From Eledone cirrhosa (taxonomy: Eukaryota): a DNA stretch of 64,000 nucleotides. The translations under genes were made by a program, and so were the position numbers. Shown here one piece after another: positions 3,093 through 33,099 of this stretch. Numbering within the stretch: the first letter of the stretch is position 1; every line of letters begins with the position of its first letter. Where the stretch lies: assembly GCA_964016885.1 (NCBI GenBank), contig OZ024747.1, forward strand, positions 30,752,001 to 30,816,000, given 5' to 3'. The notes under the pieces are model-generated. The model was not told where the DNA came from. It saw only the letters and a program-made list of their open reading frames with translations, and made no database searches.

Positions 3093-3888
3093 TCGAAATA
3101 TAATACGTGAATGTAATAGATAAAATCCATGGGGCTGAAAATCGAGGACCCGAGGGCGACCGCTATTCTGTTCCTTCAACCTCAGCCGGTCGCCCTCGAG
3201 TGACATGGCTAAAGTTTATAGTATGCTACTACCGGTCAGATAAACGAAAACAGAAAGGGATGGGAACATACGTTAGCGTCAATCTCATGACACAAGGTAA
3301 AAGAAAGAAAGAAAGGAAGGAGAGAGAAGAAGGAGGAAGAAAGAAGAAGAGAAGCCAGGGTTAATGTCAGCTAAAAGAAGAAAGGCAACTACTACCGTCA
3401 GATATAGGCAAGCAAGAGGGGGAAGGAAGATAAGTCTGCAGGAGGAAGACAGGAAGAGGCGAGAAGAGAAGGAAGAGAAGAGAGAAGTAGAAAAGTAAGG
3501 GTTGATGGCTACAAGAAGGAAGATAGAAAGAAAGAGGAAGAAAGGTCGATATTAATGTCAGACCACAGTCAGGCCAGGAGTGGCGCGAGAAAATTGTCAC
3601 AGGGACCCGCATCTTAGCAGAGGTGAATATATTGGGAGTCAGTGTGTTACAATGTTTAGACTTTTAGGATGAAGTTAAAAAATTAATAATCAATATTCAA
3701 TATTAAAGAGGTTAGAAAATTTAAAGTTCAACAGTTTAACATTTTCAGGTTCATATATCTAATAGTTCCGATTTGTTCTGTAATTTAAAGGTACTATGTG
3801 GCAGTTAAAACACCGGCCGCGCCCCGGGCCCCATGGCGAATTAAGCTACGCCGAGTATTTTCATTTACATATATATATATATGTAAGT

Positions 3889-7510: not shown

Positions 7511-7546
7511 ATATCGAAAATGGACGTTAAATGGTGATGATAATGA

Positions 7547-7772
7547 TATAATAAAGTAGAAGTCAACAGGCTAGAATTTACTTCATTTATTCGTTACACA
7601 TTTTGTATCAGCAAGAGTGTAACAAATAAATGAGGTAAATTCTAACCTGTTGACTTCTACTTCATCATTATACCTATACTCCAGAGTATGCCGACTTACA
7701 TGTATACTTCGTCGAGTGCTCTATCCTGCATACAAAAGTGTTGGTGTTTAACTAACACATATTATACCAAGA
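7547..7772. mobile_element. Inverted-repeat PLE-like fragment (arms about 7547-7600 and 7617-7672), related to 24170-24620
   Basis: Direct reverse-complement match. Shares taacctgttgactt and gtgctcta(t/c)cctgcatac segments with the 24.2-24.6 kb element. Confidence 0.65.
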
Positions 7773-7921
7773 ATATATATATATATATATATGTGTGTGT
7801 ATGTGTGTGTATGTATATATGTGTGTGTGTGTCTGCGTGTATGCCAAAATTAAACTGAAATAACAAAGCAAACAACAGAGAAAAATGAAGAAATATATTA
7901 GTTTAATGCTTGATATAGTAG

Positions 7922-7957
7922 TCTTAACGTTTCGGACACTAGTCCTTCATCAGAAGA
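7922..7957 (-). ncRNA. Minimal Penelope-type hammerhead ribozyme
   Basis: TCTT-CTGATGA-A-GGAC(TAGT)GTCC-GAA-ACGT (palindromic stem III)-T-AAGA. A decayed relative lies at about 59839-59875. Confidence 0.8.
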
Positions 7958-8274
7958 TAGAATGAGAAATAAAAGATGAAATAGAAATATAGAGAGTGAG
8001 AAGAGGTAGGAGTCTTATAATCAATTCGAGAGTCTGCCGTCTAAGGATTGATTTAGTGTATTATGTAATATTTATTGTTTTATTTTTTACTGCTTCCAAA
8101 GATTATAACTTTCTTTTTCTCTTTTTATGTTTTTTCTTTATTTTTTTTACTTGTGAAAGTTAATTATAAAATTATATTTTAACTAACTGTGTAATGATGA
8201 AACAATTGTAAAACAATAAACAAGTTTGGAACTTCGATTCCATCCATTTATTTGCATATGTGTGTGTGTGTGTG

Positions 8275-8470
8275 TAGGCATGTGGCTTAGTGGTTAGAGT
8301 GTGTGACTCATGATTATAAGATCATGAGATTGATTTCCACAGCAGATTGTGTCCTTCAGCAAGTCACTTTATTTCACTCAACTCAGTCAACTCAGCTGGC
8401 AAAAATGAGTTTTACCTATAATTCAAAGGATAAGCTCTGTCACACACTGTGTCATATTAATTTCACAAGC
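8275..8470 (+). mobile_element. Decayed tRNA-derived SINE
   Basis: ggcatgtggcttagtggttagag head and cagcaagtcactttatttcac core. Confidence 0.6.
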
Positions 8471-9149
8471 AGGCTGTTCTGTTGTTCGTACAACTGGAAC
8501 ACTCATCGCCAGAGCCAACAGATGTCCAACACACACACGTGTTTGTGTGAGTGTGTACATATGTAATATTTCTAACATGCATGAATATATAAGATAACAA
8601 GATGAAAACAAATGTCTGATAGTTTCTATCAGACATTTGCCACTATGATCAACTCTAACTAAATACATTTTCAACCACAACTGAAAAATTACATGAATCG
8701 AAATTTTAGTGTTGCTACTGTTAAAATAATATATTCTTGAAACCATTTAAAATTATTATTGGGCCTCAAACAAGCATGTTATATGTTAATCTAATTCACT
8801 CTAACAGAAATCTGAATGAAAGCTTGCTATAATCTCCTCAAACAAGGAAAATAAGATAGGCCAATGAATGTATTCAGGAAAACATATTGCTTGAACATTT
8901 TTATTTATACTTAAAACTACTTATCATCATCATTGTCATTTAACGTCTATCTTCCACGCTAGAATGGGTTTATTTCTAAAGATAAACATAATGGTAACTT
9001 TTTTATCTATTGCAGTTTTTTATCTATCACAGTTTGTAATCATAAATGGAAATCTGCTCTGCATTCAAGTAGATTTTTTCTGAAGCCAGTAATTAATTTA
9101 TCCAGTGGAAATTGTGCTTGAAAATTAAAGATTACTTAAGAAAATTAGA

Positions 9150-9500
9150 GATACTCAACAAAAATTGAATCTTCATAGTACAAGAGAATATAAATCCAAG
9201 GCTGAGTTGGTGTTCAACATTTTCTGGAAAAGTCACTTGACCAACAAAGTTCTTTATGGTGATCTGCCACATGTTTCATCAAAAGTTTGATCCAGTCACT
9301 TGGCTCATGCTGGTTATGTTTCTTGCCATGATGAACCTTCAGGGAAACTGTTTCTCTGGTCGCCAGATGCAGAGTACCGAGTAGGACATCCAAACATAAC
9401 CATCAGGACTCTGTTGGTGAGAGACACTGGCCTCATTGAATGAATCGTCTTGCTGTGATGAGAGATTGGGAAGTCTGGAACAAGAACTTTGTGCATGCTT
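9150..9500 (+). mobile_element. Old RTE-like LINE 3' fragment (similar relic at about 42990-43300)
   Basis: Degenerate NI.WKSHLTNKVLYGDLP reading, typical of an RTE C-terminus. Confidence 0.5.
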
Positions 9501-10863
9501 CACCTTCTATGGAGGAATGACTCACGAAGAACATTACCCCCGTACTTAGCATTCTGCTATTTATATTATATGCTGGATTGGGAAACTACTGTACTACTAC
9601 TATAACTAAATTCATCCACTTCTTTGTGGTGACATGATAAAAGCTTTCCATCTCCCATGATCAAGCATTAATTGTTACAGTTCTTAACCAGATAGTTCTG
9701 TATCTTCCTCAATTACTCTCTTTAATGTCTTATTCACTTATATGTAAGTCACACCAGTAGTTTTCCTTTCCTGGCTGAAAACATTAGAGGGAAAGTTCTA
9801 ATTTGAAAGCAGAGCCTAAAATCAAGAGGTCTTGGTAGAAACCTATATTGTGCAAAGAGAGGAAACTGCACAAATATGGACATGTGGTACATATGATGGA
9901 TGGCAGTTGGATAATGTAGCAAATGATCAAAATAGAAGGAAGCTATGGAAGAGGAAGACAGTGAAAGAGGTAGACACTGGAAGAGGAAGACAGTGGACGA
10001 GGAAGACAATGGAAGATGAAGACAGTGGAAGATGAAGACAGTGGAAGAAGTTGTGAAGACTGAGCTCAGAAGGCTCAAGTTCCTGAAAGTCTAGTGATAG
10101 ATTGTTATAAATAGGAAAAAGAAAAAATCCACCCAACATATGCAAAGAGAAAAAAATGGACATAAAATGATGATGATGCTGGTAATGCTCCAGAATTAAC
10201 AGGAATTTTGTCAATTACTGTTCAAGTATACAAAAAAAGAACAAAACAAACAAACTATTTTTATTCTCATTGTAGAGAGGAAACCTCGCAAAATGTTGAA
10301 GTACCAAATAAGAGAAAACAAATCAATAAAAATCCTATAAACACATGACATGTTCAGGAAGTAAATTATTTGGCTGTCACACTTCCATTCTAAACTAAGT
10401 TCAGCAGTCTTACATGAATATGTTCATTAAGACAATTAATTAGTCAAGAGAATTTCCATTAATAAACCAAAACTAAATACAAAAAACTAAAAACTAAAAG
10501 CAAAAGAAAAAAACCCTGAAAGCTACTTAGCAGAATGCTTCATGTAAAATGTATTCCAGATCTTAATTCATATATGCATTAGCAGTTGGTAGCAACAACA
10601 ATACAAAATTGCCTTGTTCATTTGATAAATCTGTTTAAGTGAAATGTTCAAATCATTTGAGAGACAACAAACTGAGCTACATAAGAAAATGGCCATAAGC
10701 ATATTCACAAGGGAGCATATATCTCCAAGACACAATTCTCCAAATGTTGAATACACAACTGAATATTTACTTTTGTTATTCATTCTACATTTATAGTCAT
10801 TCTAAATTCAATACAAATTCTTTGGTAGCTACAATAAATGTTCCTCACAAGTTATTATTATTA

Positions 10864-11252
10864 GGGTGGATTGGCAGAATCGGTAGAGGGTCGGACACTA
10901 TGCTTTGACGCATAGAGTTACGTCCCTTTATGATCTGAGTTCAAATCCCGCCCAGGTTAACTTTGCCTTTCATCCTTACGGGGTCGATAAAATAAAGTAC
11001 CAGTAATGCACTGGGATAATTGCTGGCCTTGTGCCAAAAGTAGAAACAATTATTAGGGTGGAGGATTGGCAGTATTGGTAGAGTGGCGGACACCATGCTT
11101 TACGACATAGAGTTATGGCTTTTTATGTTCTGAGTTCAAATCCTGCTGAAGTTAGCTTTGCCTTTCATCCTTACGGGGTCGATAAAATAAAGTACCAGTA
11201 ATGCACTGGGATCGATTTAATTGACTCCCCCCCCCCCCAAATTGTTAGAAAC

Positions 11253-11256
<4 letters not shown>
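10864..11256 (+). mobile_element. Two tandem tRNA-derived SINEs with a MetaSINE-like core and (ATT)n tails
   Basis: A box tggcagaatcgg, B box gagttcaaatcc, core gcctttcatccttacggggtcgataaaataaagtaccag. Other copies at about 12840-13053(-), 20400-20550(-), 26365-26538(-), 27013-27198(-), 34015-34140(-), 37285-37440(-), 59092-59278(+), 61710-61850(-), 62397-62540(+). Confidence 0.85.
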
Positions 11257-11294
<38 letters not shown>

Positions 11295-11849
11295 CATCGT
11301 TATCATCATTGGTAGGATGTCTGACATGTTTTACAGCATATAGTTATATCCCTTTATGTTGAGTTCAAATCCTGCCAAGCAAATACTGAGACTTGCCCGA
11401 GTGCGTACTCTTTGCACCAGTCATTGTTGAAACCTCAGGCGTCCTCAGACCCCGTCAATACTAAAGTAGAGTTTTAATATTAGTTTTATTATAGCTGAAT
11501 AGTGGGTGTTGTTAATCTAAAGTTTCACTGGTCTATCACTTCGTCTTCGATGACTCTGTCATAAACAGGCAAAACTCCAGAGTAACAAGACTCACTATTT
11601 TACCTTAATAAAATATATATATATAAATAATAATAATATTATTTATAGTTATGTATATACTATAAACAACTATAAACAGGAAAGGTCAGTAATTTCTACT
11701 ACCAGTAAGAGAAATAGCTCAATGTAAGAACATCAGTTGTTTTACAGAGCAGGTAAATAAAATTATGACTCCAAACGAAAATTTGGAAGAAACGATTGTC
11801 ATTTAATGATCTGAACACAACTTTGATAATTGTCTAATTTTATATATAA

Positions 11850-11960
<111 letters not shown>

Positions 11961-14900
11961 TGTATCCTGGGTTCAATCAGGGTAACCACAGTAAGTAAGG
12001 TACTCGATACATAGCGGAGTATAAATGTTTAATATAGGAATAGCTTCTACAGGACTAGAACTGTTTCATTCGAAGGAAATCATTATATATATCAGATGGT
12101 TGTATTCAATATTGTGTGGTGGAAATTTTATATATATATATATATGTATATTTATATATATATATATATATGTAATGAATATATAGTAAATATATATGTG
12201 TGTATTCCAATATATTTTCTATTGATCTATTTGTTGCATTATGAACTACTGTTAACCTATACTATATCAATGTTTGCTGTGATAAAACACATTAATTGCA
12301 ATGACACACCATATATTTCAATGACTTTACACATGCAATTATTGTATGCTTTGTGTTTCAATGATACTGCATATGTGTAAGTGTTTCGATGATACTCTAT
12401 GTGGGTGTATGTGTGAGTGTATGAGTGTTTCGAAGATAGTGTGTATGTGTGTCTGTGTTTCGATGATACTTCATGTGTGTGTATGTGTGTGTGTATGTGT
12501 GTGGGTGATTGTGCATGAATCTCCAAGCTAGAATATAACTGCCAAAAAGCAAACATACAGAAACAATGAATATTTAAAAACATAAATAATTAAATACTTC
12601 AAAAGTGTACATTTTATTAAATGTATTTCACTTTTGTGCTTTTCCTATAAGTATCCAAATGTAAAAACAATGCCGATATGAGAGAAGTGGTAAAAAATCA
12701 TCTAGGGATGAAGGAATGTTTAGTCTAATCAAAAATAAACTGTCCTTGTGACACCGAAACAAATTGTATCTAGTCCCTGTGATAAAGTAGTTGATGAAAG
12801 AGGGTATCTAGCTACAGAAACTATGCCCAAATAATGATTTCTGATTTGGGCACAAGACCAAGAATTCTTTTTTTTTGGGGGGGGGGGGTCGATTAAATCA
12901 ACCGCAGTATGCTACTGGTACTTTATTTTATCAACCCTGTAAGGATGAAAGGCAAAGCTAACCTCAGCAGGATTTGAACTTAGAATGTTAAGAACCAGAA
13001 ACATACTGGTAAGCATTAGTTCGATGCTCTAACAATTCTGCCAATCCACTGCCCTCTATGTCAAAATAATGTCAACAATAACAGGGTTGACTGAGTTTTG
13101 TTTTCTGTTGCTATGTGTACCAGATGATAAAGTACCATAAGAGATGACCAGATGTTATGAGTTCAGATATCAAAATACCATAACAAGAGACACTGGAATT
13201 GACAAGGAAGACCTACAAACCTTGATGGGAAACAGAGACTATTGGCATGAAGTTGTGCTTGCTGTGTCATCTAATGGATAAGGATACAACATTTTTATAA
13301 TGTTGCAGATCAAATCAAATTACCTGCTACTGGTATGTGGAGGGTGGTTGGACACTCTGATAGGACAAAAAATAATAATACTTATCTGCAATGGTGGATA
13401 AATTCAACAAGGAGTGAAAAGCCATTCATAAAACCTACAAATTAATCTTGAGTCTAGTGTTGCTGATTCTCTTTGCAATCCTTGCACTTGGTTGTCCCTC
13501 ATAGACATACTGGCCTTACATATTTCTCTATCTTAAGAATCTTCTTGATAAATATAAGGGCCATTCAAGGTGACTTAAATCATTCCTGGTTAAGATTATC
13601 ACCATCTCATGTTAACCATCAATCATTTCCCTCCACAGAGATGAACTATGTTTACATGTACTAACTACTGATGAGTGATGTTGTTTCTGTGTTATCGAAA
13701 AGATAACACTGCAGCTTTCTTAATCACATTCTGTATTTCATCACGTTTACTCAATATGTAACTACTCACTCCACAAAATAAAACACAATACACATTTAAA
13801 AATTTCTAACCATTTGCACACATAAAAACACACACACACACACACACATGTATATCCTCACTCTGGCACAAAGAAAAATACATTAGCACACTGTTATAAA
13901 TATTTCATTCCAGAAAGTGTTTTGCAGTATATTTTAAGGCTGTATATATCCATACTGGTGCACACATACTGCTTTCAGCTTCTAAATAGATTCACATAAA
14001 ACTATATTGATGCATTTGAGAATGCAGCTATATAATCTCTACATATAATGTAAGTTTCTCTATGACATATACTGATACATGTCATGAAGACTCTGTTATA
14101 TTTGGTAATTTATAGATTTCTGATTCATTTAGAGAGGTAGGAGAACAACAACAACAACAATCTTTTGCTATTTGGGGTTCTCTGTAATAGAAACAATTCA
14201 ATTTACGCTCCCTCTCTATCCTTTATTTTTGTTATTAATTTGATATTTAGAAAGAAAGAAAATGGACCTCCCCTACCTCCTGCGCCACTTCAACCCAGTA
14301 TTAATATAATCCATTGTAGTATACCAATGTTGAAATACATTTGGGAATAAGCTCAGATTTGGTAGAGTTTTTATGATCGATTCTTTTAAGTTAATATATA
14401 TATATATATGTGTGTGTGTATATGCATATATATATACCATCATATTTGTTTAACGTCAATTTTTTCACACTTGCATATAATTATATATATATATATATAT
14501 ATATGAATAAAGTTAGTCCTTCATCAGTGATCTTCCAACCATCATTGGTATTTCATCGCTTTAAAGACCATATACCTCCGGTTGGTGCGAGCAACGGCTA
14601 AAAAAAGTCGTTGGGACTCGTAAATAAAGGGGACACGAGAGTGTAAACAAATAAAGATGGTGAAGCAATGAAAAGTGAGGGAGAAAGAGTCAAGTCCCAA
14701 ATTTCCATGAATATAAGTTCGGTGAAATCGTGAACGAGAGAGAATAAAGACCATCAAACCTGGTTGGAATGTGAACGAGGAAGGAATTCCGTGCAGGTCT
14801 AACGGGAGGAAGAAGGAATCTAGTCTGTGAATTCGGTGAACATAAGTTCTGTGAAATCGTAGACGAATACATACTTATAATATCCATCTGCCCCTGTGCC

Positions 14901-16984
14901 TGTGTCTTCCTTTTAACTTTATCTGTTGCCAATTCTACTATATATATATATATATATATACCCACAAACATATATATACACAACTATATATATACACACA
15001 CACAAATAAATATTTTTATTCTACAGGAAACCTAATGAAATATTTTTGTAGTTCTCTACTCTATACTATGAAATATCTGATAAATTGTTAATATATTTCA
15101 CACACTACTAATATAAATAGCCATTACAGTTACAAAAGAGAAGACAGTTCATCTAATGATATGTACAAACAAGAAGATGTAGTTAAAAGGTTTGGTTTAC
15201 AAACATATGGTTTCAGGTTCAGTCCCAGCTTAGGTAAATATTTTCTACTATATCTTTAAACTGACCAATACATTTTGAGTAAAATTTGAGTGACGGAATG
15301 TCTCTGACAGCCCATCATACATATACACAGACACAGGGCTGGATTTATAGGTGGGGTGGAGGAGGGGGGATGCTCTGGGCACTCCTTGTCAAATAGGGGC
15401 CCCTCTAGGAACAGTCATGAGCCCCTACCAAACCTGAACCACTCTGGATCCCCTAAACCTGAAGTGCCCTAGGTCCCCAAAATCTGATGGAAATGAATGT
15501 GGAAGGAAGTAGAGTAAGGGGATGACCATGAAAGATATGGATAAATATATCTAGGATAAATGTTGACAATATCATATAGACATAATGAAGCCATTTTCCT
15601 GATGCCATGTCTTCATATTCAGCATAATATATAAAATATTATGCTGAATATTCTCCGTTTGATAGAATTTATTATTTCTTTCTTTATCTGATATATTTTC
15701 TGTCTTATCTGCTATGATCTGAAAAGCTTACTTTTAATGTTATTGCCTGAAACAAGTGAATTTTATCTACTTTGTAAAAAAAGGCTCTACATTTAAGTGA
15801 ATTAATGACAACAAAATTAACAAAAGCAACAACTACAACCACTACCACCACCTCTTCTACTACCTCCACTAGCACCACTACTAGTACTATCTCCCCCCCT
15901 TACTACTACTACTACCATTACTGCTGTTGATTCATTTTCCTTGCAGTTCAATAATTCTAGTTATGTAAAATTACTGTTATTTTATCATTTCATGTGAAAG
16001 CTGTCAAAACAAGCATGATTTCTATTAATTCTCAATAAAACAAAAACCAAAGACCAAAACTAAAACTAAAAAGCCTTAATTGAAATGATACTATTATCTG
16101 TGGCTATAATAGAGCACCATTGCAATTTACAGATATATGAAGTAAATTAAATGCAATGATTGTCCACTAGGTAATACAATTATAGAAATGAAGGATTGAA
16201 AAAAGAATTATCATAACACTTTATCTGGATCTAATTATGAAAGCAACACTGGGAATTTCATTAGTCTTTTTTACACAAAGAATGGTTTTTCATTAGCTAG
16301 TCTGCCATCAGTAGTGTTACAAAACCTTCTATATTTGTTTTAACTAACATCTTTTTTTTCTTCTCCATTTAATGTACATCCAGTAAAGATTCTGCACAAC
16401 TATGTAGCCAGCAATCCATCACATTAATCACACAGCTATAAAAGCTTCTATGATTGAATATATACTTCAATTGTGCCATGAGTTTGAACAACGTTTCTAA
16501 GGTCTGTATAAACTAGATCATTCTGGGATTCTCTGGTCCTTTAGCTTTTTCTAAACTAATTTTCATGATTACTACTGGACATTAGAGCACTGGATTCATT
16601 ACAGCCTAGATAGATATGTAGATAGACAGATAGCTGATAATGATGATGATGATGATGAGTACTCAACTGAGACTTATTCTGCTGACCCCCTTCCTCCCTA
16701 GAAGGATGAATGGCAACATTGAGCTAGGCAAGAGTTGAACACAGAATACAACTAAATATCACAAAGAGGAGAGGGAAGAGAAAAAGGGTGTAGGAAGAGA
16801 AGATTGAGTCGACAGAGGAGGGAGGGAAATAGTATGATGAGTGGGGGAAGAAGAGGAGGTGAAGGTGAAGGCAGAGAGGGATGAAAACCCACAATAACTG
16901 GCAATGAAAACACTGCAACAACTCTGGGAAACTAAACCAGAACAACCTGCCATCCTCTACACACTAACATAAACTGCAAGCAGA

Positions 16985-18010
16985 GTACAAATTATTGTCC
17001 TTAAATGCTCGCAGTTTATGCAACAAGATACATCTGTTTAACTCCTATGTCAGAAGCATCGACTCTGACTTCATCACCGTCATGGAAACATGGGCACATT
17101 CCTTGCTCTGTGATGGGGTTTTCAGCATTACTGGGAACAACCTGTTCTGCAAGGACCGCATTAATTGCTGTGGTGGTGGTGTGATGAGCTACGTTCGTTC
17201 AAATTTCTCGGTAATTCCTTGCATTGATTTGAATGAATCACAAGAAGACGTTTTTTTCTGTGACATACGTATGACCATGTCAACACTTCTGCTTGGTGTT
17301 GTTTATCGCCACTAAACTACCATCAGGACACACAGCTTTGCGATATCCTCAGAGCTGCTGTCAGGAAAACAGCCACTTATGTGTTTATTTCAGGTGACTT
17401 TAATCATCCTGAGATTGATTGGGAAACCTTTCGTTGGCCACAAAGTGCAAACGATTTCCTTGAGCAAGTGCTGGACTCAAACTGCCTTGAGCAAGTGCTG
17501 GACTCAAACTGGTCACAAATAGTCGCCTCTCCAACAAGAGGTGACAACACTTTGAACCTGCTCTTCCCCACTACTCCTGAAGTGGTTATCAGGTGTACTA
17601 CTGAGGAACATCTAGGCGACTCTGATCATGCTATGATCATTGCCAATCTGGCTCTTGCGGGCAGCAACAAAAACCAGAACCATCTCCAATCTGCTTGCTT
17701 TGATTGGAAGAAAGCAGATTGGAACTTGAACTGCACTGAGCTACAGCACCCAAACTGGCATGAGTTCTATAACTCTGGAGATGTGAACACTATACTCCAG
17801 AGCATCTGGACTCAATATGGATAGTGTGTGCAGCATAAGTGCCACGTAAGCAGAAAAAAAAACCACCCCAAAAGTGCAATTTGGGAAACTTCAGCAGTCC
17901 GACTTGCCAGAAAAGGACGTTGGAATGCTGAACGGGAATATAAACTGCATAAATCAGATGCCAACAGAAAATAGCGGAATAAATCTTCCAACCATCTCAA
18001 GGAAGTGACA
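16985..18010 (+). mobile_element. Decayed CR1/L2/Jockey-group LINE fragment (AP endonuclease)
   Basis: LNARSL.NK, ETW, GGGVMSYV, GVVYR, GDFNHPEIDW, PTRGDN.L, LGDSDH motifs, broken by stops and frameshifts. Confidence 0.85.
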
Positions 18011-18055
18011 AATTTTAAAATAAATTTAAAAAAATTCACTGTATATACTATATGT

Positions 18056-18137
18056 GCCTTTACCGCAGTTTCAGATCCCCAAACAAATAGATAATCCAAG
18101 CGAATTTCCATTGAGAAAGAGATCTTCGTCAGAAGGC
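18056..18137 (-). ncRNA. Type I hammerhead ribozyme, intact (second copy)
   Basis: GCCTT-CTGACGA-AGATCTC...GGGATCT-GAAA-CTGCGG-TA-AAGGC. GUA site at 18061. Confidence 0.88.
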
Positions 18138-18529
18138 TTTTCTCTCTCGGAGAATATAAAATTCCCGAGTTCAAAATACAAACTGGTGCCATACAAAACT
18201 GCCCCAGCAAATGAATGATGAAACAATTTTGTCTAGCACCGTGTGCAAAGACTGAAAGCAAGGTGGACAGGTCAATCTCTTGCTACTAAAAATAGCAGCC
18301 GTTCAAATGACCAAATGTTTCTCTACTGTTGGGGAGAATAATAATAAAAGTATGTGTTCCTACATGTAAATAATACACATAGGGATACAAGTATAGTCCG
18401 ACCGTATGCTTGTGTAGTTCAATGGTAAGTTAATAATTTAACAAGCCAGAACATATGAAATCAAGGGAAAGCAAATGAAGAAAAAAATTTAAAATAAATT
18501 TCAAAAAATTCACTGTACTTACTATATAT

Positions 18530-18611
18530 GCCTTTACCGCGGTTTCAGATCCCAAAACAAATAAATAATCCAAGCGGATTTCCATTGAGAAAGAGATCTT
18601 CATCAGAAGGC
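18530..18611 (-). ncRNA. Type I hammerhead ribozyme, intact
   Basis: GCCTT-CTGATGA-AGATCTC...GGGATCT-GAAA-CCGCGG-TA-AAGGC. GUA site at 18535. Confidence 0.9.
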
Positions 18612-18855
18612 TTTTCTCGAAGATCTCTTTCTCAATGGAAATCCATTTGGATTATCTATTTGTTTTGGGATCTGAAACCGCAGTAAAGGCACATATAGTA
18701 AGTACAGTGAATTTTTTGAAATTTATTTAAACATTTTTTCTTTATATATATATATATATATATATACACATGTACATTCATATATATATTTATATGTGTA
18801 TAAGTAGGGAAACACAAAGCAGGCTCTGTTTACAAACAGCTAGCGAATTTGAAAA

Positions 18856-19058
18856 TTAGGCAGTAAAATGTACTTATGCTGTATTTGACTACATAGGATT
18901 AGTCTGTTAGTTGGGATTTTAAAAAACCCTCTAAATGGATAAAAGGATGAGTATTGATGTACTCATCATTTTATCCATTCAGAGGTTTTTTTAAAATCCC
19001 AATAAACAGACTAATCCTATGTAGTCAAATATGGTGTAAGTACATGTTACTGCCTAAT
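18856..19058. repeat. Fold-back inverted repeat (about 100-bp arms, 6-nt loop)
   Basis: attaggcagtaa...ggatgagta / tactcatc...ttactgcctaat. No HHR core found. Confidence 0.85.
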
Positions 19059-19167
19059 ATATCTATATACTACTAAAATTCTGATCTTGGTTGGTTGGTT
19101 GGTTGCTTGCTTGCTTGCTTGCTTGCACACACTTTCTCTATATATATATGTTCATATTTGTGAATAT

Positions 19168-19890
19168 ACAGGTTGTCCCCACAAAAATGTATACCCACTT
19201 TGATTGCCTATACATGCATTATTTGTTAGGATGGTGTATACATTTTTAGGGACCCCGGTATTATTATATATATATATATAGTGTCCCCGAAAAATGTATA
19301 CACACTTTGATTACCTGTACAGGCAATATATATATTAGAATGGTGTATACATTTTTAGGGACCCCGGTATATATATATATATATGGTGTCCCCAAAAAAT
19401 GTATACACACTTTGATTATCTGTACAGGCAATATATATATTAGAATGGTGTATACATTTTTAGGGACCCCGGGATATATATATATATATATATTTGGTGT
19501 CCCCGAAAAATGTATACACACTTTGATTATCTGTACAGGCAATATATATATTAGAATGGTGTATACATTTTTAGGGACCCCGGTATATATATATGGTGTC
19601 CCTGAAAAATGTATACACACTTTGATTACCTGTACAGGCAATATATATATATTAGAATGGTGTATACACTTTTAGGGACCCCGGTATATATATATATATA
19701 TATATATATAGTGTCCCCGAAAAATGTATACACACTTTGATTACCTGTACAGGCAATATATATATTAGAATGGTGTATACATTTTTAGGGACCCCGGTAT
19801 ATATATATGGTGTCCCTGAAAAATGTATACACACTTTGATTACCTGTACAGACAATATATATATATTAGAATGGTGTATACATTTTTATA
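19168..19890. repeat. Tandem array of 7 units (about 100-116 bp), each resembling a Tc1/mariner MITE
   Basis: Unit gtgtccccgaaaaatgtatacac...gtgtatacatttttagggaccccgg, with units separated by short (TA)n. Confidence 0.85.
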
Positions 19891-21366
19891 CTGGGGGCAT
19901 TACTTCAAACACATTTAGAAATAAATAATATATATATAAAAACAAATAATACCTCTCCTCCATCTTATTTTTCTCTTTATCTGTGTGTTTTCACCAAGAA
20001 AAAATTTTCCCTTCTGCCACTGTTCACTCTCCTGTATCTTTCTATTTCTTTAATTTCTCATTCTATTTTCTGATTCAGAACTACCGCCTGAAACTTTGTG
20101 ACTTTTTCCTACTATATCAAGCATAAAACTAATATATTTTGTCAATGTACTGTGTTGTTTGCTTTGTTATTTCTGTTTACATTTTGCATATAAGTATATA
20201 CATGCTTGAACATACAAGTCGAATCAGCTTGGCAATGCGGTCGGGATCTTATCTATCTTTATACCCACTCTGTATCTCTCCATGCATTGAATACTTCCAT
20301 GTTTAGTGGTACCCCCCCCCCTCTCTCTCTATATATATATACATACACACACAGAGTGAGAGAATGGATGTGGGAAAGAGTTACAGAAGAAAAATCAACT
20401 CCAGTAAGTACTAGATTCATATTATTTTATCGACTTGAATGGATGAAAGGCAAAGTCGAGCTTGGCAGGATTTGAATTCTGAGAGCAGAGAAAAACATGT
20501 ATCGGAAAGCATTCTATCTGATGTTCTAATGACTCTGCCAATTCATAGCCTTACTCATCATTAGATTTATAAAATAAAGTACCAATACACTTCACTTTCT
20601 CCTCCCCTAAAATTACAGGCCTTGCACCTAAATTAGAAACAAACACACCCTCCACCAACATCAGGATCACCACCATCTCCATCATCATGAAACATGATTT
20701 TTTAATGATATATGTCATTATGATTTATCCTGAGAGGTTTAAATTGCAATCTGATATTACATATACCAAACTCTCAATTCTTTCAGAAGACAATGTGTTT
20801 GCAGAGAATTAAAACTCAAAATATATTTTTAATGTAATATGGAAATTCATTAATATACTATATTTGGAAATAATAATTTCCAAAGAATTTTCAAAATAAA
20901 TTTGATATATTCCTCAGCTGCCAAATAGTATATTAAAAAAAAACTCAACAATAAATATTCTTTCTGTGTAATTTGAATAAAATATAAAAAACTAGAACAT
21001 GCAATTCTTCAAGTGGATTGCAGGAATAATTAATTTTGCCTCCGCCACATCTATCTATATCTTACTGGTTCTGTCTATAGTAAGATAATTTATGAGTGTA
21101 CAAATCTTGAAATATGATAGCAAAACTTATCAAATGATATTAAGAATACAACAGTATACATACAAGCATTTATCTGTGAAAGAATACATTTATACATGTA
21201 CCTACATGTTTGACATATGCATACATACACATAAATACATATATATATATATATATAGATATGAACATATTTATATGTGTATATATACATATATACATAT
21301 ATATACATATGGGTTATGTGGCAGATTTCTGTAGGACTTAAATTCACACACACACACATACACACA

Positions 21367-21418
<52 letters not shown>

Positions 21419-21627
21419 GTTATACTTGGGGAGGGTCATATTTGTGTAATATTGCCAGAATTAATAACAGAACACACTCACTGTTTGGTTGGTTTTCGCT
21501 TTTCGCTTCTGTGTCTTTTATATCGGTAATCTAATATAATATACTCGGTCCTCAATGTTGCCATTGACTGACCCACGGTCAAAAATAATACAGATACAAT
21601 ATAGACACAAACACATATATATAGTTT

Positions 21628-21669
21628 ATCATAAATCGTTCGTTGCACATCTGCAACATCATCAGTGGT
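21628..21669 (-). ncRNA. Degenerate HHR in the Penelope pLTR (mirror copy 22882-22923 +)
   Basis: CTGATGA-T-GTTGCA(GATG)TGCAAC-GAAC-GATTTA. The other copy reads CTGACGA...AAAA-GATTTA. The consensus of the two restores GAAA. Confidence 0.7.
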
Positions 21670-21959
21670 TCTATTGTTTCCTCCTGTTGAATTGTATGGC
21701 TACGCCATTTTTATTCAGTCTGTCTATATATTTATTTATTTATTTGCTTGTTTGTTTATTTTATTTTGTCTTCTTTGTGCATGCGTTTGCGTGTGTGTAT
21801 AGTGTTTTGTTTGATGTGTGATGTGTGTTCGTGATTGGGTGACTAATGTGTGTTTATGTGTTTGTTGTTATTGTGCTTGTGTATGTATTTATTTATTTAT
21901 TTTATTTTATTTTATTTACTTATTTATACTTCTCTTAGGTCAGTGTTGTTTGTTTGGGT

Positions 21960-22555
21960 GTTGTTCTTATTCCATTCATTCTTTCTGTTTAGTCTTGGTC
22001 TTCTAATTTCTATTTCACTGGCCTCTCTGATTTGCCTATCTGCTGGGTCATTTCTATGTTTAGATATTATTCTAATTTCTATGTTGTCTATGTTACCGTC
22101 ATGTTGTTGTCTGGCATGTTCGTATAGTACTGACCCGTTTTTTCATCCTTTTAGTTCCCCCCAGTGTTGGTCTATCCTTTCACCTATGCTACGAACTGTC
22201 TCACCTATGTATGTTGTTGTCATGTTTCTGCAGGTACCCTCTGTACATCTTATGCTATAGACTACGTTTCTAGTTTTACAGTTTATCTGGGGGTTTACCT
22301 TACATATGATACATTTCCTATTGGTACAGTGGGTTTTCTTAAAAGGGTAGGTTTTGCTGATCAGGGATTTTATGGTGGTTCCTGGCTTTTCTACCACCTT
22401 TATTTTTAAGTGGGTCTTTCTCATGGCCTTTCTACACTGGTTAGCTAATTTCCCTCCAGGGGTAGCGTCCACAAACATGACACTCTGGCATCTCTGGTTG
22501 TCGTACCACGAGGTGGCTTTCCCTATCTTATGTCTAGCCCTATCTAAGCTATTCC
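21960..22555 (-). pseudogene. PLE C-terminal Cys-rich linker plus GIY-YIG endonuclease
   Basis: FVDATPGG, CxxxxCxxC...C, NVVY..C...C...YIGET.R...R...H. Reads through a TGA (22143-22145) into SVLYEHARQQH...RQIREA.EI...PRLNRKNEW (CCHH motif). Confidence 0.9.
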
Positions 22556-23178
22556 ATTAGAAAGAATGAATGGAATAACAACAACACCCAAACAAACAAC
22601 ACTAACCCAAGAGAAGTATAAATAAGTAAATAAAATAAAATAAAATAAATAAATAAATAAATAAATACATACACAAGCACAATAACAACAAACACATAAA
22701 CACACATTAGTCACCCAATCACGAACACACATCACACATCAAACAAAACACTATACACACACGCAAACGCATGCACAAAGAAGACAAAATAAAATAAACA
22801 AACAAGCAAATAAATAAATAAATATAGACAGACTGAATAAAAATGGCGTAGCCATACAATTCAACAGGAGGAAACAATAGAACCACTGACGATGTTGCAG
22901 ATGTGCAACAAAAGATTTATGATAAACTATATATATGTGTTTGTGTCTATATTGTATCTGTATTATTTTTGACCGTGGGTCAGTCAATGGCAACATTGAG
23001 GACCGAGTATATTATATTATATTAGATTACCGATATAAAAGACACAGAAGCGAAAAGCGAAAACCAACCAAACAGTGAGTGTGTTCTGTTATTAATTCTG
23101 GCAATATTACCCAAATATGACCCTCCCCAACAATATTTGTTTCGACACACAATTTCATATAAAAAACCTCGCAAACCT

Positions 23179-23220
<42 letters not shown>

Positions 23221-23223
<3 letters not shown>

Positions 23224-23880
23224 TCATCATCATCATCATCATTTTACGTCCCCATTTCCCTGCTTGCAAGGGTGGGACCGGAACTGATTCTGGCTTGATT
23301 TCTACAGCTGGATGCCCTTCCTAATACCAACCTCATTTACAGTGAGTGCTGGGTGCTTTTTTGCCGTGGCACCTCCACGACCACTTTGCAGTGGAATGAT
23401 AGGGAACCCAGTCCCTATCATCTCATTTCTACAGCTGAGTAAACTGGAGCAATGTGAAATAAAGTGTCTTGCTCAAGGAAACAACACATCACCCGGTCTG
23501 AGAATTGAACTCATATATATATAGAGAGAGGCACATGGCTTAGTGGTTAGAGCATTGGCCTTACAATCGAAAGGTTGTGAGTTCAATTCTCAGACCGGGT
23601 GATGTGTTGTTTCCTTGAGCAAGACACTTTATTTCACATTGCTCCAGTTTACTCAGCTGTAGAAATGAGATGATAGGGACTGGGGTCCATATCATTCCAC
23701 TGCAAAGTGGTCGTGCAGGTGCCATGGCAAAAAAGCACCCAGCACTCACTGTAAATGAGGTTGGTGTTAGGAAGGGCATCCAGCTGTAGAAATCAAGCCA
23801 GAATCAGTTCCCGTCCCACCCTTGTAAGCAGGGAAAAAGCAGACGTAAAATGAAATGATGATGATGATGATGATGATGAT
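23221..23880. mobile_element. Head-to-head pair of tRNA-derived SINEs (23221-23513 -, 5'-truncated; 23529-23880 +)
   Basis: Two near-identical copies in opposite orientation, with A/B boxes and (GAT)n tails. Confidence 0.9.
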
Positions 23881-23975
23881 ATATATATATATGTATGTGT
23901 ATATATATTTATATATGTGAACATATATGTACATGATTTTCTGTGCCAGCATAGAGAAATGGATTTAAAATAATG

Positions 23976-24038
<63 letters not shown>

Positions 24039-24126
24039 TTTGTATATATATATATATATATATACTTTGGGAGGGTCAACACACGATTTCAGATAAAGAA
24101 TCTTGCTAAACAAATTCAGAAACGAA

Positions 24127-24159
<33 letters not shown>

Positions 24160-24498
24160 TACATATTGAGTATATGTTGGTTGTTTACCGACACCTCAGT
24201 ATGCAGTATATTTATAATAAACGAAGCCAGAGTTTATATATTTGACTTAATTATTATATATATATATATATAAATTCGTGTATATGTTGGTTAATTACCG
24301 ACACTTCAGTATGCAGGGTAGAGCACACAACAAAGTGCGCAGGTGGGTCTGTTTACTCTGGAGTAATTTAGAGTAATTTGACCAGTGCTTTTAGAAAACA
24401 ACACCATACTTCATCACCGAGCATATCAAAAATTGAAATAACAGAGATATACTTTATTCAATCGTTATGTTTTTCTGTTTTTTCTGTTCCAATTCTAG

Positions 24499-24555
24499 TT
24501 GTTTGATGAGGTCATAGCTGTTGCATAATGATTATCACCAAAATATATATAACAG
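24499..24555 (+). ncRNA. Decayed hammerhead ribozyme
   Basis: TTGT-TTGATGA-GGT-C-ATAG...TTAT-C-ACC-AAAA-TATATATA-ACAG. Core C3 and G12 are mutated. Confidence 0.6.
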
Positions 24556-24989
24556 AAAATGTGAATAAAGTTAATTTTAACCTGTTGACTTACTCTTCTT
24601 CTTTATATATATTATATATACTAGCAGATAGCAGAAAAATTGCTAGCATGTGTAGTGTGTATATTGATATTATACACAAGTATATATGCATGTAGATATG
24701 ATCAAATAAAATAGTAATTGACAATATACACAGAAATTGACTGTGTTACACTGTCTTATGTAATCAGTAACGTAATCCATGATACATTAAAAAAAGACCA
24801 TATTATATATAAACTGCATTAGGAGACCATATTATATATAAAACATATAAACAGAAAAGACCATATTATATATAAAACATATAAACAGAAAAGACCATAT
24901 TATATATAAACTGCATTAGGAGAAAATTAGCGACAGAAATATATGAATATTTATTTAAACAATCACTAACCGGAAGTGTTGACATTTGT

Positions 24990-25421
24990 ATGCTTAATTA
25001 AAAGCATTTCGAAGACCTTACGCTATTGTTTTAGAGTAGTGACAGTCTCACTTACTGCTAATTAAGCATACAGTGTATTGCAAAATACACTATATATACA
25101 TTCGTATATATATATCACTATTTCAGAGCAGCAATTCTAATTTTCAATTTCTGCTTGACCGGCAACCGCTCTGTATAATCAGTTCCTGATTATTACTAGA
25201 ATTCTATAAGAATCAAACATTCATGATTTTCAGCAAACAGGCGGAGTACTTAGCTTTGATAAGCACCAAAAAGTGCGAAACAGAGCTCTGTCAGCTTTAT
25301 CTCCCTTGTTTGCTGAAAATTAAAGTAAGTGAGACTGTCACTACTCTAAAAAAATAGTGTAAGGTCTTCGAAATGCTTTTAATTAAGCATACAGTGTATT
25401 GCAAAATACACTATATATACA
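24990..25421 (+). mobile_element. Retrozyme-like element: 321-bp unit with terminal redundancy plus an inverted segment (24990-25056)
   Basis: taattaagcatacagtgtattgcaaaatacactatatatac occurs at 25059 and 25380. 24990-25056 is the reverse complement of about 25325-25391. Confidence 0.8.
25252..25296 (+). ncRNA. Hammerhead ribozyme fold with mutated core
   Basis: AGCT-TTGATAA-GCAC(CAAAAA)GTGC-GAAA-CAGAGCTCTG (palindrome)-TC-AGCT. Enclosed by the outer helix TTTTCAGCAAACA/TGTTTGCTGAAAA. Confidence 0.78.
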
Positions 25422-25923
25422 TATATATATATATAAAATCACACATATATGCACACAAACAGACATACATACAATATGGCTATATTCATATAGAGTTATA
25501 AATTCATTTTTCCATGATGAAAAGGGTTGGATAAAAGGTTTTGAGGCAGAATTCAGTTACCTATCATCATCACCGTTTAACGTCCATTTTTCAATGTTGG
25601 CATGGGTTTAATGAGTTATCTTATTGTAAGCAATGCCAGGTCAGGTAACCATGTCTTGCTTATACAGAACCAAGTTTGGCTTGGTTTCTACAGCTGGATG
25701 CCCTTCCTAGTGCCAACCTCATTTACAATGAGTACTGGGTGCTTTTTGTTGTGACGCCTACACAACCACTTTACAGTGTGAACTGGGTGCTTTTTGATGT
25801 GACACCTACACGACCACTTTACAGTGTGGGCTGTGTGGTTTTTGCTGTGATCTCAGTCCTATGTCATTGCCTTTCATAGGTGCAATTGGGTAGGGTCAGG
25901 TTTATACAAATATATATATATAT

Positions 25924-28900
25924 TAAGGGGGGGTTGAAACACATCGTAATTCAATGGTATGCACAGAGTTTCAAATAGTATTTTAAATAAAATGAAAATT
26001 AGGGTTATGTGACCTCCCCGTACCCCCCTCCCCCCAATTAAATACCCTAATTTTCTATATTAATCATAATCTCTAACACATATATACTACATTGCTTATA
26101 GATATGAAACATTTGATCATATTTAAAACATCTGATGAGTAAAGATAGCAAAAACATTGAGATATAAGACAATTAGTAGGTAGGTACACCTCCAACATGG
26201 TAAATTAGTAGGTAGGTAGGTATACCTCCAACATGGTAAAATTACAACTTTTCAATGTGTTAAATGAATTTTGTTTTGCTTTTCAGAGCTAAATTGTATT
26301 ATAATTTTACAAAAATGCCTACATAAATTTAAACTGTAATAATTTAAGTATATAAAATTATATAATTGCTTCTATTTTTGGCACAAGGCCAGCAATTACC
26401 CAGTACATTACTGGTACTTTATTTTATCGACCCTGTAAGGCAAAGTTAACCTCGGGGGGATTTGAACTCAGATCGTAAAGGGACGTAACTATGCTGGAAA
26501 GCATGGCATCTGACTTTCTACCTATACTGCCAATCCACAAAATTATATAATGGCAACTAGAAGTAAAAGCCGTAATTCAGCATTTGGATTTCCTGCAGAA
26601 TTTCTTACAGCAATGACCCTGTCAAAGGTTGATGTATTCCGACATTATTTATACATAAGAAAACTTCACCCACACCGAAAGAATGCTACCAGATTGTTGC
26701 TGCAAATGTGCAAATAATATAGGACAAATTTTCTTTTCCTTAGTTTGGGTTGCGGGAATAGCTCTAAAAATTGAGAGATTGATTGAATCCGCTTATAAAT
26801 TAAACAAAATACCTATCAAACAAAGAGGAGATAATTTTGATAAGAAATTAGAGGAGTTCAATGAAATGTTTGATATATACACCTGCACGTGTTATGACAA
26901 ACAAATAAAAAGATCTGACTGTAGGTGTGACATAAGCATACGAATTATGGAATGAGAATCATTTGTTGGACAGAGGAAAAGATTTAATTAGTTAGGGCCT
27001 GTAGATAGAGAAATAATTGTTTCTACTTTAGGCACAAGGCCAGCAATTATCCAGTGCATTACTGGTACTTTATTTTATCGACCCCGTAAGGATGAAAGGC
27101 AAAGTCAACCTCGGCGGGATTTGAACTCAGATCGTAAAGGGACGTAACTATGCTGGAAAGCATGGCGTCCGACCCTCTACCGATACTGCCAATCCACAAT
27201 GCCAAGTAGAAAAAGAACTGCAGAAAGAGCACAAATATTTGAAAACAGGAAGGCAAAGATGCGCTTAGACATTGATCATATTTCACTGTAGAAACCTTGT
27301 TTAAAACATCTGATGAGTAAAGATAGCAACAACATTGAGATATAAGGCATTGCTTCAACTAGTTATCAGTGCCTAAGTGATATTAATGGAGACAGTTGTA
27401 ACTCGTGTGACAATGATGATGATGATGACATCGACTTTGTTCCTGACAGTGAACTGAGAGAAAACCAACAAAACAGATTTACTTATGAGAATCTAGCCAT
27501 CGCAGCAGACAGATATCGAGTAAGTTGCAGAGTTGCTGCTGCCATTGTTAATGCAGTTTTGAGAGATATAGGAATTTTAAATGATACAAATATGCTAGAT
27601 AAGAAAAATGTTGAAAGAGAAATAAAAAGAGTTGGAAAAAAACAATATCGGTTTTGATGGCAGAAAGGATAAAACTCAAACAGCAAGAGGGATGGAAAGT
27701 GAAGAGTACTATGTTATTGTGAAAGAGCCCGGTGATGAGTATTTAGATCACGTCTCCCAGGGATAATGGATCGGCTCATTGCATTGCAGAAGAAATTATT
27801 GCATTTTTAATTGATTCTGACATTGAAGACAGTTTAAAGGCTGTATTATGTGATGGCACTCCAGTAAACACTGGTCATGTAGGAGGGGGTAATTGAATTA
27901 TATCTAAATAAACCACTCCAGTGGCTGATATGCCTGCTACATACAAATGAGCTTCTGTTTTGAGATGTATTTGAATCCATAGATGAAAAAACAACAGGAC
28001 CACGAACATCAAAAGGCTTAATTGGCAATAAAATTAAAGAAGATGTAACAAACTTAAAGATAATAACATTTTTTCCAGTAAAAACTAAAGTGAAGGAATT
28101 GCCATTAGAAGTTGTTGATACTTTAAACTCAGATCAAAAATATTTCCATGAAATGCTCCTCAGTGTTGAGACAGGATTTGTTTCTGAGTAGTTAGCAGCA
28201 AGATCACCTGGTAAAATCCATCATGCAAAGTGGTTAACACGTGCAAACAGAATTCTTTGCTTATATGTTTCTGAAAAAAATTACCAAAATAATATTATGG
28301 AGCTTGTTAAAATCATAATGCAAGTTTATGCTCCAAGCTCAAGCTGGTTCTGGATTAAATCTCACCCAAAGTTACATGAAGGAGCAGCTAATTTCTGGTA
28401 TATGGCACATATAATGCAAGATCTGAACCAAGATCATAAAGAAGTTATGGAGAAATCGTTAAAAACTAATTTCTATTTTGCCCATCCAGAGACTATTTTA
28501 CTGACTATGCTGAATGATGGAAGAAGACAAATTAGGGAAGTAATAATTCAGCAAATTATTAAAGCAAGAACTTTTCCCCAAATGCTTCGTGAAGAATTAA
28601 GAAATTTCAAACTACCAAGCAAAATTAATTTTGAAGCACAGGATTATATTGATTTGATTAACTGGGAAAATGAAGTTATAACAACCCCTCGAGTTTTATG
28701 AAACATCACAAATGTTGATCTTCTTAAAGTTCATTCAGGACCATTAATAGCAATACCTCTTCCCTGTCATAGCTAAGGAGTCGAGCATGCTCTCAGTTTA
28801 GTGACAAAAGCATCTGAAGTCAGAATAGGCTATGAAAATAGGCACAGATTCATATTAAAATGTACAGAAATCAAACCAAAGTTTACCTCACTTTGACTGG

Positions 28901-29387
28901 AAAAGACATTGGTCATTTTATTAAATAGTAAATACTATTAATGCTTATTTTATGGTGTTTACTGTTAATGTATTTTGTTTCAGGTTCGTGCATAGTTTTT
29001 TTTATTGCATATCATAATAGTCATTAAGAATTTACATTATTTATATGTTGAAAGTGCTTTTCTTAATATAGGTTTTTTTTATAAAAAAAAAATTAATACA
29101 AACTATATAAATAAATAGATTCCAATAACTGTTTTTTCAGGTGTGTGGGGTTGCATATGATTTATAAAAAGTTATATAGCTAATATTTAACAAATACAAA
29201 GTTAATAGCATTAAAACAAGTTTACAGTTCCTTAAATTTTCAGTGTTCAAAACGCAGAATTGGGGGCAGGGCTATGCGCGGTGTAGGGGTGATCGCATAC
29301 TTTTTAAAATTTTTTAATTTATTTCTTACACCAAACGGAACACCAAGCAATATGTGGAATCAGAATATAACATTTCGAACCTCCCCT
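25924..29387 (+). mobile_element. Decayed hAT-superfamily (hATm-like) DNA transposon with two SINE insertions
   Basis: Imperfect TIRs taagggggggttgaaa / tttcgaacctcccct. Transposase relics at about 26549-28890: CDGTPVNTG, PLQWLICLLHTNEL, VYAP..WF.IK, YFAHPE.ILL.ML.D, INFEA.DY.DLINW, LPCHS.GVE. The SINE at 26365 has the TSD aaaattatataat. Confidence 0.75.
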
Positions 29388-32050: not shown

Positions 32051-32418
32051 TATATATTATTAGCACAGATTGAAATTTTAAGCAAACAATTTCTGCTTTC
32101 ACCTAAAGCTATATATACATATGCTATAATGGCGATCATGTGTATTGTATGGCAGAGAAAACTGACCACTTTAAAGAAATCATTTATACAGGTTGTTTGG
32201 TACATTGACAACCATGTACCTTGGTATTAATTCAGTTTCTGTGAACAAAATACATTGACAACCCATTGATTGATGAGAGGCTACACAAGAAAATACTTGC
32301 CCAAGAGGCACAGAGGTAAATCACAAGACCACAAGCTTGCAAAGTAAACTTCATAACCACACAGAAATGACTTCACACACATACACAAATATAAATCTCT
32401 ACATCTCTCTCTCACTAT

Positions 32419-32454
<36 letters not shown>

Positions 32455-32552
32455 GACCAAAAGTTAAACAAGGTTCATTGATTAATCAATGAATATAGTT
32501 TTACAATAGATTAGAAGCACTCAACAAATAAGTTTTCTGGAGTTATTAATAT

Positions 32553-32870
32553 TAATTCCAAATATTAATAAATATAGACATTCGTGTGATCAAATATATT
32601 TTATTATATATATTTCAGAGGTACTGTGCTGTTTCCTCAGTACGTCCTCATTAGATAAAATAAATTGATGTCTGTCATACCTCAACTGTGCTGATGGTTC
32701 GATTCCAGTCTTGGTAGGACTGGAATTGAACCATCAGCACAGTTGAGGTATGACAGACATCAATTTATTTTATCTGATGAGGACGTACTGAGGAAACAGC
32801 ACAAAACCTCTGAAATATATATAAAATATATTTGATCACATGAATGTCTATATTTATTAATATTTGGAAT
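32553..32870. mobile_element. Fold-back element (about 155-bp arms) with an HHR in each arm (32597-32662 -, 32766-32830 +)
   Basis: Minus arm: TATTTTAT-CTAATGA-GGA-C-GTACTG/CAGTAC-C-TCT-GAAA-TATATATA-ATAAAATA. The plus arm has CTGATGA but damaged stems. Confidence 0.85.
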
Positions 32871-32894
32871 TTATATATATATATATATATATAT

Positions 32895-33068
32895 AAATAG
32901 CTTCTACAGGACTAGAACTGTTGCATTCAAAGGAAATCATCAGCTTTCCTGATGATTACCTTCGAATGAAATAGTTCTAGTCCTGTAGAAGCCATTTCTA
33001 TATTAAATATTTATACTCTGCTATGTATTGAGTACCTTACTTACTGTGGTTACCCCTGATTCAACCCG

Positions 33069-33070: not shown

Positions 33071-33099
<29 letters not shown>

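Follow-up and report, generated by a model that had tools for sequence, protein, structure and literature searches.

A hammerhead-bearing element in the window (the whole 64,000-nt stretch of Eledone cirrhosa contig OZ024747.1 that was analysed) is very probably a retrotransposed, decaying copy of a dispersed, non-autonomous Penelope-like element (PLE) of the non-LTR retrozyme kind, with a ribozyme pair that is predicted to be blocked by an inverted arm of the same element. The element is one copy of a non-coding family that appears to comprise hundreds to low thousands of copies dispersed in the genome. Li et al. (2026, bioRxiv 10.64898/2026.07.22.740005) recently argued that animal retrozymes derive from PLEs and are non-autonomous; this open proposal, that PLE machinery moves animal retrozymes, has so far been argued from co-occurrence and pLTR similarity, and the octopus family adds direct insertion-site evidence to it.

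Hammerhead pair and element architecture

The original prediction placed two intact type I hammerhead ribozymes (HHRs) on the minus strand, with H17 (GUA) at 18535 and 18061 and a spacing of 474 nt, and this was confirmed when the motif positions were re-derived (Table 1). Both HHR A and HHR B carry CUGANGA, GAAA and UH, with stems I, II and III in type I order; each has a 5-bp stem I (GCCTT/AAGGC) and a stem II of 7-8 bp that bears a long hairpin arm and is closed by an A-U pair, the canonical pair being G-C. The stem III strands, said to be able to pair with each other, are indeed complementary: ACCGCGGU and ACUGCGGU pair at 8/8 positions, with one G.U, and the duplex energy is -11.9 kcal/mol. 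A strict type I scan of the window returned these 2 motifs and no others, and each of 100 first-order Markov resamples gave 0, which excludes the pair as a chance repeat. An Rfam search at the locus returned no hammerhead family match, even at E<=10, probably because the stem II arm is long and stem III is short; Rfam miRNA matches over the hairpin were far below threshold and were rejected. The three copies at the locus (A, B and the inverted copy) are mutually 91-93% alike. The third, inverted copy lacks CTGAT, as originally observed: it starts at G8-A9, without the 5' strand of stem I and C3-N7, and its stem III reads CCGCAG.

Unit positions were numbered from the first base after the cut site. 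The 474-nt unit has a circular MFE of -124.8 kcal/mol (z -5.2 vs 60 shuffles), and, in agreement with the non-coding character first ascribed to its spacer, the longest ATG-started ORF in the unit is 78 aa in sense and 54 aa in antisense. A 156-aa stop-to-stop frame (17815-18282) had no Pfam or NCBIfam match, and no relative of it was found in viral contigs. An RT/GIY-YIG ORF between the repeats, such as marks an autonomous PLE, is not present. The element had also been called complete; this was refuted, as its outer ends (unit positions 51 and 60) stop short of the fixed ends of the family (~80 and 194). The ends of the window copy are thus neither S1 nor S2, their positions suggest later deletion, and the target duplication is unreadable. 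The neighbouring LINE fragment ends where the direct end of the element begins, and there is no TA tract at that junction. The window copy is 94.7% identical to its nearest relative (~5% apart), and the changes are scattered, as would be expected under neutral decay.

Table 1. Coordinates of the element, its ribozymes and its surroundings, in positions of the window unless a locus is named
Feature	Coordinates	Strand	Remarks
Host exons	47162-46977, 43699-43514, 38681-38460, 1094-876	all -	tblastn
Host intron	1095..38459 (~37.4 kb)	-	CUB-repeat membrane-protein gene; edges from tblastn
Decayed LINE fragment	16968..18009	+	endonuclease domain PF14529, E 2e-9, in 17264-17821
Whole element	18010-18745		direct part (-) and inverted copy (+)
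Direct part, 1.28 units	18010..18618	-	unit positions 391-474, 1-474, 1-51
474-nt unit (would-be monomer/circle)	18061..18534	-	35% GC, non-coding
Tail between fixed 3' ends	18341..18455	-	S1 = unit position ~80 (18455), S2 = 194 (18341)
HHR A, type I	18530..18611	-	cut 3' of 18535
HHR A core	18606-18600, 18546-18543	-	CUGAUGA (DNA CTGATGA), GAAA
HHR A stems	I 18611-18607/18534-18530; II 18599-18593/18553-18547; III 18543-18536	-	stem III palindromic
HHR B, type I	18056..18137	-	core CUGACGA (DNA CTGACGA) 18132-18126; stem III 18069-18062; cut 3' of 18061
Inverted copy, 5'-truncated	18619..18745	+	unit positions 407-474 and 1-60
(TA)n tract	18743..18766	.	at outer end of inverted copy; usual target of the family
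Sister family loci	L148-L207		e.g. L207:1270-1756

Insertion sites, sister family and copying template

Across the 3.0-Gb genome, 2409 first-look candidates were obtained (40 scored, the best others at 93-94%), and exact pattern searches gave 147 matches to a 23-nt core and 259 to the whole core, with 0 for the reversed controls; these totals of candidates and pattern matches are not copy numbers. Contigs from three sequencing runs of one sample contained many related copies, with a hint of a third related family. Mapping onto the unit covered 120 loci, or 98 distinct places after removal of duplicates, which were picked by best score or motif, 20 of them by the tail itself, such that proportions among them are not genome-wide. 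Every mapped copy is made of pieces of the repeated unit, in partial tandems of 0.2-1.8 units, and the longest one-direction run in the 98 places is 868 nt. The family has sequence features of a non-LTR retrozyme: a short non-coding repeat of low GC content, multi-copy and dispersed, with at least two tandem HHR-bearing repeats. Together with the palindromic stem III, these sequence tests support the retrozyme-like class that had been proposed. Long head-to-tail arrays, a trait of many retrozymes, were found in neither the family nor its sister, there being no array of at least two full units in 98 family and 59 sister places; such arrays are not required of retrozymes, as most vertebrate families have few units (bioRxiv 10.64898/2026.07.22.740005). 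The closest spacer pair among 41 copies is 97.5% identical, and the sample therefore includes no very recent copy.

Outward 3' ends were concentrated at two sites, 65 at S1 and 62 at S2, with 28 elsewhere (127/155 fixed), and 111/127 of the S1/S2 ends are joined to (TA)n. Inverted insertions were present in 58/98 places. Among the 57 inverted copies with two ends, 35 combine S1 with S2 and none has S1+S1 or S2+S2. In the other 22, one of which is the window copy, an end could not be classified; the window copy appears to have lost both outer ends. The partial tandem with a 5' inverted, truncated copy, the (TA)n or AT-rich target and the two 3' ends all agree with a non-autonomous PLE, the first of these being visible in the window copy itself. 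Direct, direct and inverted pLTRs with a tail at one end form the typical PLE layout, and microsatellite targets are among the marks described for EN+ Penelope-like elements (PMC3846280, PMC8557442). In vitro, an RT start site lies on either side of the tail, and cleavage and extension take place on both strands of the target (PMC11167929); by analogy, S1 and S2 would be reverse-transcription start sites.

Of 27 loci inspected in a young autonomous PLE-type family of the same genome, some of which overlap, 6 have ends in both orientations, and the same one-of-each use of ends holds in 6/6. This family is very abundant, with 26719 first-look candidates at 96-98% aa; its frames run uninterrupted for 1100-1200 aa and its unit measures ~4.1 kb. 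It also targets (TA)n, has its own HHR-like core, and has a tail of 43-58 nt. Its ORF had no Pfam or PDB match, its relatives carry RVT_1 weakly, and the PLE label was given on its structure and on a reading by eye of its RT, GIY-YIG and Cys motifs. A 5'-truncated copy of this family with inverted terminal arms lies in the window at 21421-23135, with a GIY-YIG/Cys-motif remnant at 22146-22553 (-).

A search for an autonomous partner found that full-length copies of this abundant young family, the one PLE family compared, share no DNA similarity with the unit, and a search by pre-HHR pattern returned family copies at 30/30 loci and no autonomous partner. PLE ORF pieces beside some family copies were considered as remains of a partner and were read as separate neighbouring insertions (junctions inspected at L055 and L119).

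A sister family, with a unit of ~486 nt that is 75% identical (491 matches at one mismatch), keeps the core, whereas the outer pair of stem I and two stem II pairs are swapped and the closing pair is the canonical G-C; the changes in stems I, II and the arm appear compensatory. Its stem III is a 4-bp hairpin with a 3-nt loop and folds as a monomer. The segment that precedes the HHR is 89% conserved between the two families. Within the first family, covariation did not exceed shuffles (3 pairs observed vs 4.1 shuffled), the copies being too alike; across the two families, 7 pairs covaried (53 cells, 0/500) in 26 hand-picked rows that amount to essentially one event between two clades. The sister comparison points to selection on the HHR fold in the source lineages. 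The 3' ends of the sister family (n=69) fell 50 times at S1 and 10 times at S2; it is inverted in 13/59 places, and 8 of its 11 two-ended copies are S1+S2, the other 3 being unclassified. With a dimer-only palindrome in one and a loop-closed monomer stem III in the other, and inversions in 58/98 against 13/59 places, the pair forms a natural test of the role of the HHR.

The S1+S2 rule thus held in every classifiable inverted insertion of three families (35/35, 8/8 and 6/6). A tail at one end of inverted pLTRs has already been described (PMC3846280, PMC8557442), and a strict S1+S2 count was not found stated in the literature searched; the strict use of one 3' end of each kind makes a precise prediction for the in-vitro PLE system. 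In the mechanism that we infer for the family, a PLE RT/GIY-YIG protein would nick both strands of a (TA)n target, and cDNA would be primed at S1 on one target strand and at S2 on the other. Because the copies run across the ribozyme cut site, the template must have been uncut or re-ligated: it would be a multimer that was never cut, or else a circle closed by ligation. Where a source copy has two direct HHRs, its palindromic stem III would permit cutting only as a dimer, and the resulting monomer could be circularised by RtcB, as is known for other retrozymes; a circular template for the family stands, in our judgement, at a little under even odds. We tentatively propose further, as possible rather than probable, that the template is an RNA circle produced by the ribozyme and that a Penelope-type RT, in reading it, invariably starts on the two strands of the target from two distinct fixed positions of that circle. 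If this proposal is true, one mechanism would account for the tails of PLEs, for head-to-head inversions and for copies longer than a unit, and the octopus families would preserve a genomic record of the copying of an animal retrozyme, the inversions also silencing their own ribozyme.

There is a substantial chance, somewhat short of even, that the ribozyme of the family is instead silent in mobilisation and that copies are made from uncut linear read-through RNA, with no circle at all. HHR mutants of PAc insert normally in vitro, where uncut RNA is the main substrate (PMC11167929). Consistent with this, 5' ends in 78 places are evenly spread, with only 2/121 at unit positions 1-3 and without the peak at the cut site that a template of cut linear RNA should give; no array attains two full units; and, while 81/102 full-length HHRs keep the core and 55/81 of these have a perfect stem III palindrome, the stem II closing pair is U.U in 31/81 cores. 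However, the subfamily base at position 10.1 is common to both HHRs in 22/24 pairs vs 43% between loci, and no 5'-versus-3' difference recurs in >3/15 pairs; these two observations call for re-homogenising, as by a monomer circle or a template jump. Uncut read-through RNA is also at variance with the 5' ends listed, which have no shared upstream flank or fixed 5' end, and with the retention of core and stems across the sister families.

Predicted folding in the host transcript

The element lies in the middle of a 37-kb intron and, in line with the original prediction, in sense orientation to the host gene, the four host-gene exons all being on the minus strand. At 92-100% identity, the host exons match an Octopus protein that the database calls tolloid-like 2. 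Pfam searches of the host protein gave CUB matches in five stretches, weak LDLa similarity and, despite the database name, no protease domain; we take its CUB layout to recall the glutamate-receptor auxiliary subunits SOL-1/Neto.

Fold predictions were made for thermodynamic equilibrium at 37 C, with proteins, editing and kinetics left out. When the transcript 18620->18010 was folded in isolation, its MFE was a double hammerhead with an inter-ribozyme stem III at P 0.92-1.0, which backs the predicted dimer pairing through the palindromic stem III. In the host (minus) transcript, however, the complement of the inverted copy is made first, upstream of HHR A, and the inverted copy, previously taken as a dead extra, is instead predicted to act as an arm: its antisense pairs over 120 nt with 18601-18475, forming a hairpin with HHR A at P ~1.0 that covers G8-A9, GAAA, stem III and the cut site. 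The penalty on the active fold was 5-7 kcal/mol with 10 extra upstream nt (start 18630), 22 kcal/mol with 20 (start 18640) and ~105 kcal/mol (ensemble) with the whole arm (start 18760). The arm alone is weakly folded (-14.9), and in the MFE it holds HHR A at every tested transcript length from 18595 onward. Duplex energies were -183 kcal/mol for arm:A and -158 kcal/mol for arm:B; since either pairing is strong, one HHR is always captured and the dimer fails either way. HHR B, left as a monomer, forms stem III at P ~0.03.

Host transcription is accordingly modelled as giving no HHR dimer and no 474-nt RNA from the window copy, and the chief RNA-level product would be a long dsRNA hairpin. It is possible that HHR B makes, at most, a slow single cut at 18061 as a weak monomer, which yields no circle: an HHR from axolotl whose stem has 2 bp reached 22% cleavage within one hour (PMC7229834).

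According to the original prediction, transcription of the host intron leads to double self-cleavage, release of a 474-nt circRNA and severing of the intron; that this occurs, and to a degree that affects the gene, we regard as very improbable. A cut intron need not prevent splicing. Both HHR cores are intact and in sense, the MFE is a double hammerhead when the arm is left off, and the 17.0 kb from site B (18061) to the next host exon leaves time for cleavage; moreover, non-LTR retrozymes are expressed as circles in coral, mussel and axolotl, with RtcB ligation (Cervera and de la Pena 2020, PMC7229834). The modelled folds do not support the release of a circle, as the arm would always capture one HHR at a cost to the active fold of the size given above. 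PLE-type HHRs, furthermore, cleave poorly even as dimers (PMC4209133), the HHR of PAc required its protein (PMC11167929), and 1/9 Xenopus dimers cut in vitro (bioRxiv 10.64898/2026.07.22.740005). The improbable monomer stem III of HHR B and the scattered 5% divergence of the copy, as in neutral decay, also weigh against it. The run-off transcription that had been suggested, 18620->18010, is flawed in that it starts past the blocking arm and so omits it, and the suggested circle-junction motif is not diagnostic, being found in linear DNA at both sites and in 147 genomic places; divergent PCR is no more diagnostic, as linear copies of 1.3-1.8 units yield its product too. Alleles that would mark this locus lie at 18067 in HHR B and at 18528, 18519 and 18518 in copy A. 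If the host effect were true, a TE-derived ribozyme would be acting on a gene whose domain layout recalls that of SOL-1/Neto, which would be of much higher interest; the window copy is most likely a passenger in the host gene, and the locus itself, as a decaying TE copy, is of little weight.

Direct HHR pairs numbered 15 in 78 places, with both cores intact in 10. In fold predictions with three lengths of context, 3/15 of these pairs (L002, L003 and L025) retain the dimer stem throughout and would be better places than the window copy to seek the monomer. HHR scans must fold the flanking inversion too.

Relation to known elements and other repeats of the window

That the pieces form no family in their own right, but are debris of autonomous PLE ends (pLTRs) or a repeat that arose by chance, is hardly credible and already largely refuted: HHR-bearing pLTR fragments, solo or inverted, are commonplace (PMC4209133) and the window holds such debris of other families, but dozens of places carry the entire unit, with its spacer, in register, the sequence upstream of the HHR runs on as unit and not as ORF, and chance is excluded by the resampling scan.

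The family is, as far as our searches show, a new one of a known kind that extends retrozymes to cephalopods. No cephalopod retrozyme was found in the literature searched, although the supplementary lists of earlier surveys may include examples, and the word 'ribozyme' is absent from the available text of a 2026 annotation of octopus repeats (PMC13282606). Like the animal non-LTR retrozymes described so far (PMC7229834; bioRxiv 10.64898/2026.07.22.740005), the family has a repeat that is non-coding and low in GC, a single type I HHR in each unit, a short palindromic helix III suited to dimers, a tandem pair of HHR-bearing repeats, no LTR, PBS or PPT seen, and coexisting PLEs; the intronic position of the window copy is likewise paralleled by ~44% of Xenopus copies (bioRxiv 10.64898/2026.07.22.740005). 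The unit of 474 nt compares with reported lengths of 150-450 (PMC7229834) and 51-972 (bioRxiv 10.64898/2026.07.22.740005). Unlike many retrozymes, the octopus family never reaches 2 full units in 157 places, and its HHR is PLE-like, with a 5-bp stem I, a 7-bp stem II and a long arm. Its prominent inversions and two fixed 3' ends are not described in the available portions of PMC7229834 and bioRxiv 10.64898/2026.07.22.740005.

With EN+ PLEs, as portrayed in PMC3846280, PMC8557442, PMC11167929 and PMC4209133, the family shares direct, direct and inverted repeats, 5' truncation, a tail at one end, AT-rich or (TA)n targets and an HHR upstream of two RT start sites; it differs from them in having no ORF and in a tail of ~113 nt, the usual length being 30-40. 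Chlamys MRC1 (PMC8557442) is similarly non-coding, pLTR-forming and mobilised in trans; however, elements of this type resemble their autonomous partner at the 3' end and belong to a clade reported to be without canonical HHRs (PMC8557442). The HDV-like ribozyme of CPEB3 (PMC10919898), which cleaves itself and serves its host, also lies in sense in a long intron, but it is single and conserved, whereas the octopus copy is one of many that are decaying and is predicted to be blocked.

Two further HHR-like loci were observed in the window. A palindromic repeat at 2395-2720, of a fixed-length family of ~320 bp (1586 first-look candidates), has an HHR-like motif in each arm (H17 at 2660 (+) and 2452 (-); 8-bp stem I, weak stem II) and is MITE-like, perhaps a frozen inverted pLTR pair. 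At 25239-25314 (+), an Rfam HH9 match of 28 bits, below threshold, was read by eye as a type I HHR with a 4-bp stem II, a palindromic stem III and the U3-A8 core variant, which has been described (PMC4209133); it sits between inverted arms near 25010-25110 and 25325-25420, and the MFE of this motif contained no HHR fold.

Additional inverted and tandem repeats are present at 18855-19058, 19220-19890, 23255-23836 and 40270-41493 and comprise a 204-nt palindrome adjoining the element, a hairpin tandem of ~105-113 nt and long near-perfect inverted repeats; the host intron appears rich in potential dsRNA. Coding pieces of mobile elements were recognised by eye from the translations at 4245-7526 (-), 53543-57537 (+) and 63110-63778 (+). 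The first is a LINE-like RT frame that runs for 1093 aa without interruption, the second consists of helicase pieces of Helitron-like character, and the third is a piece of Ty3/gypsy-like RT.
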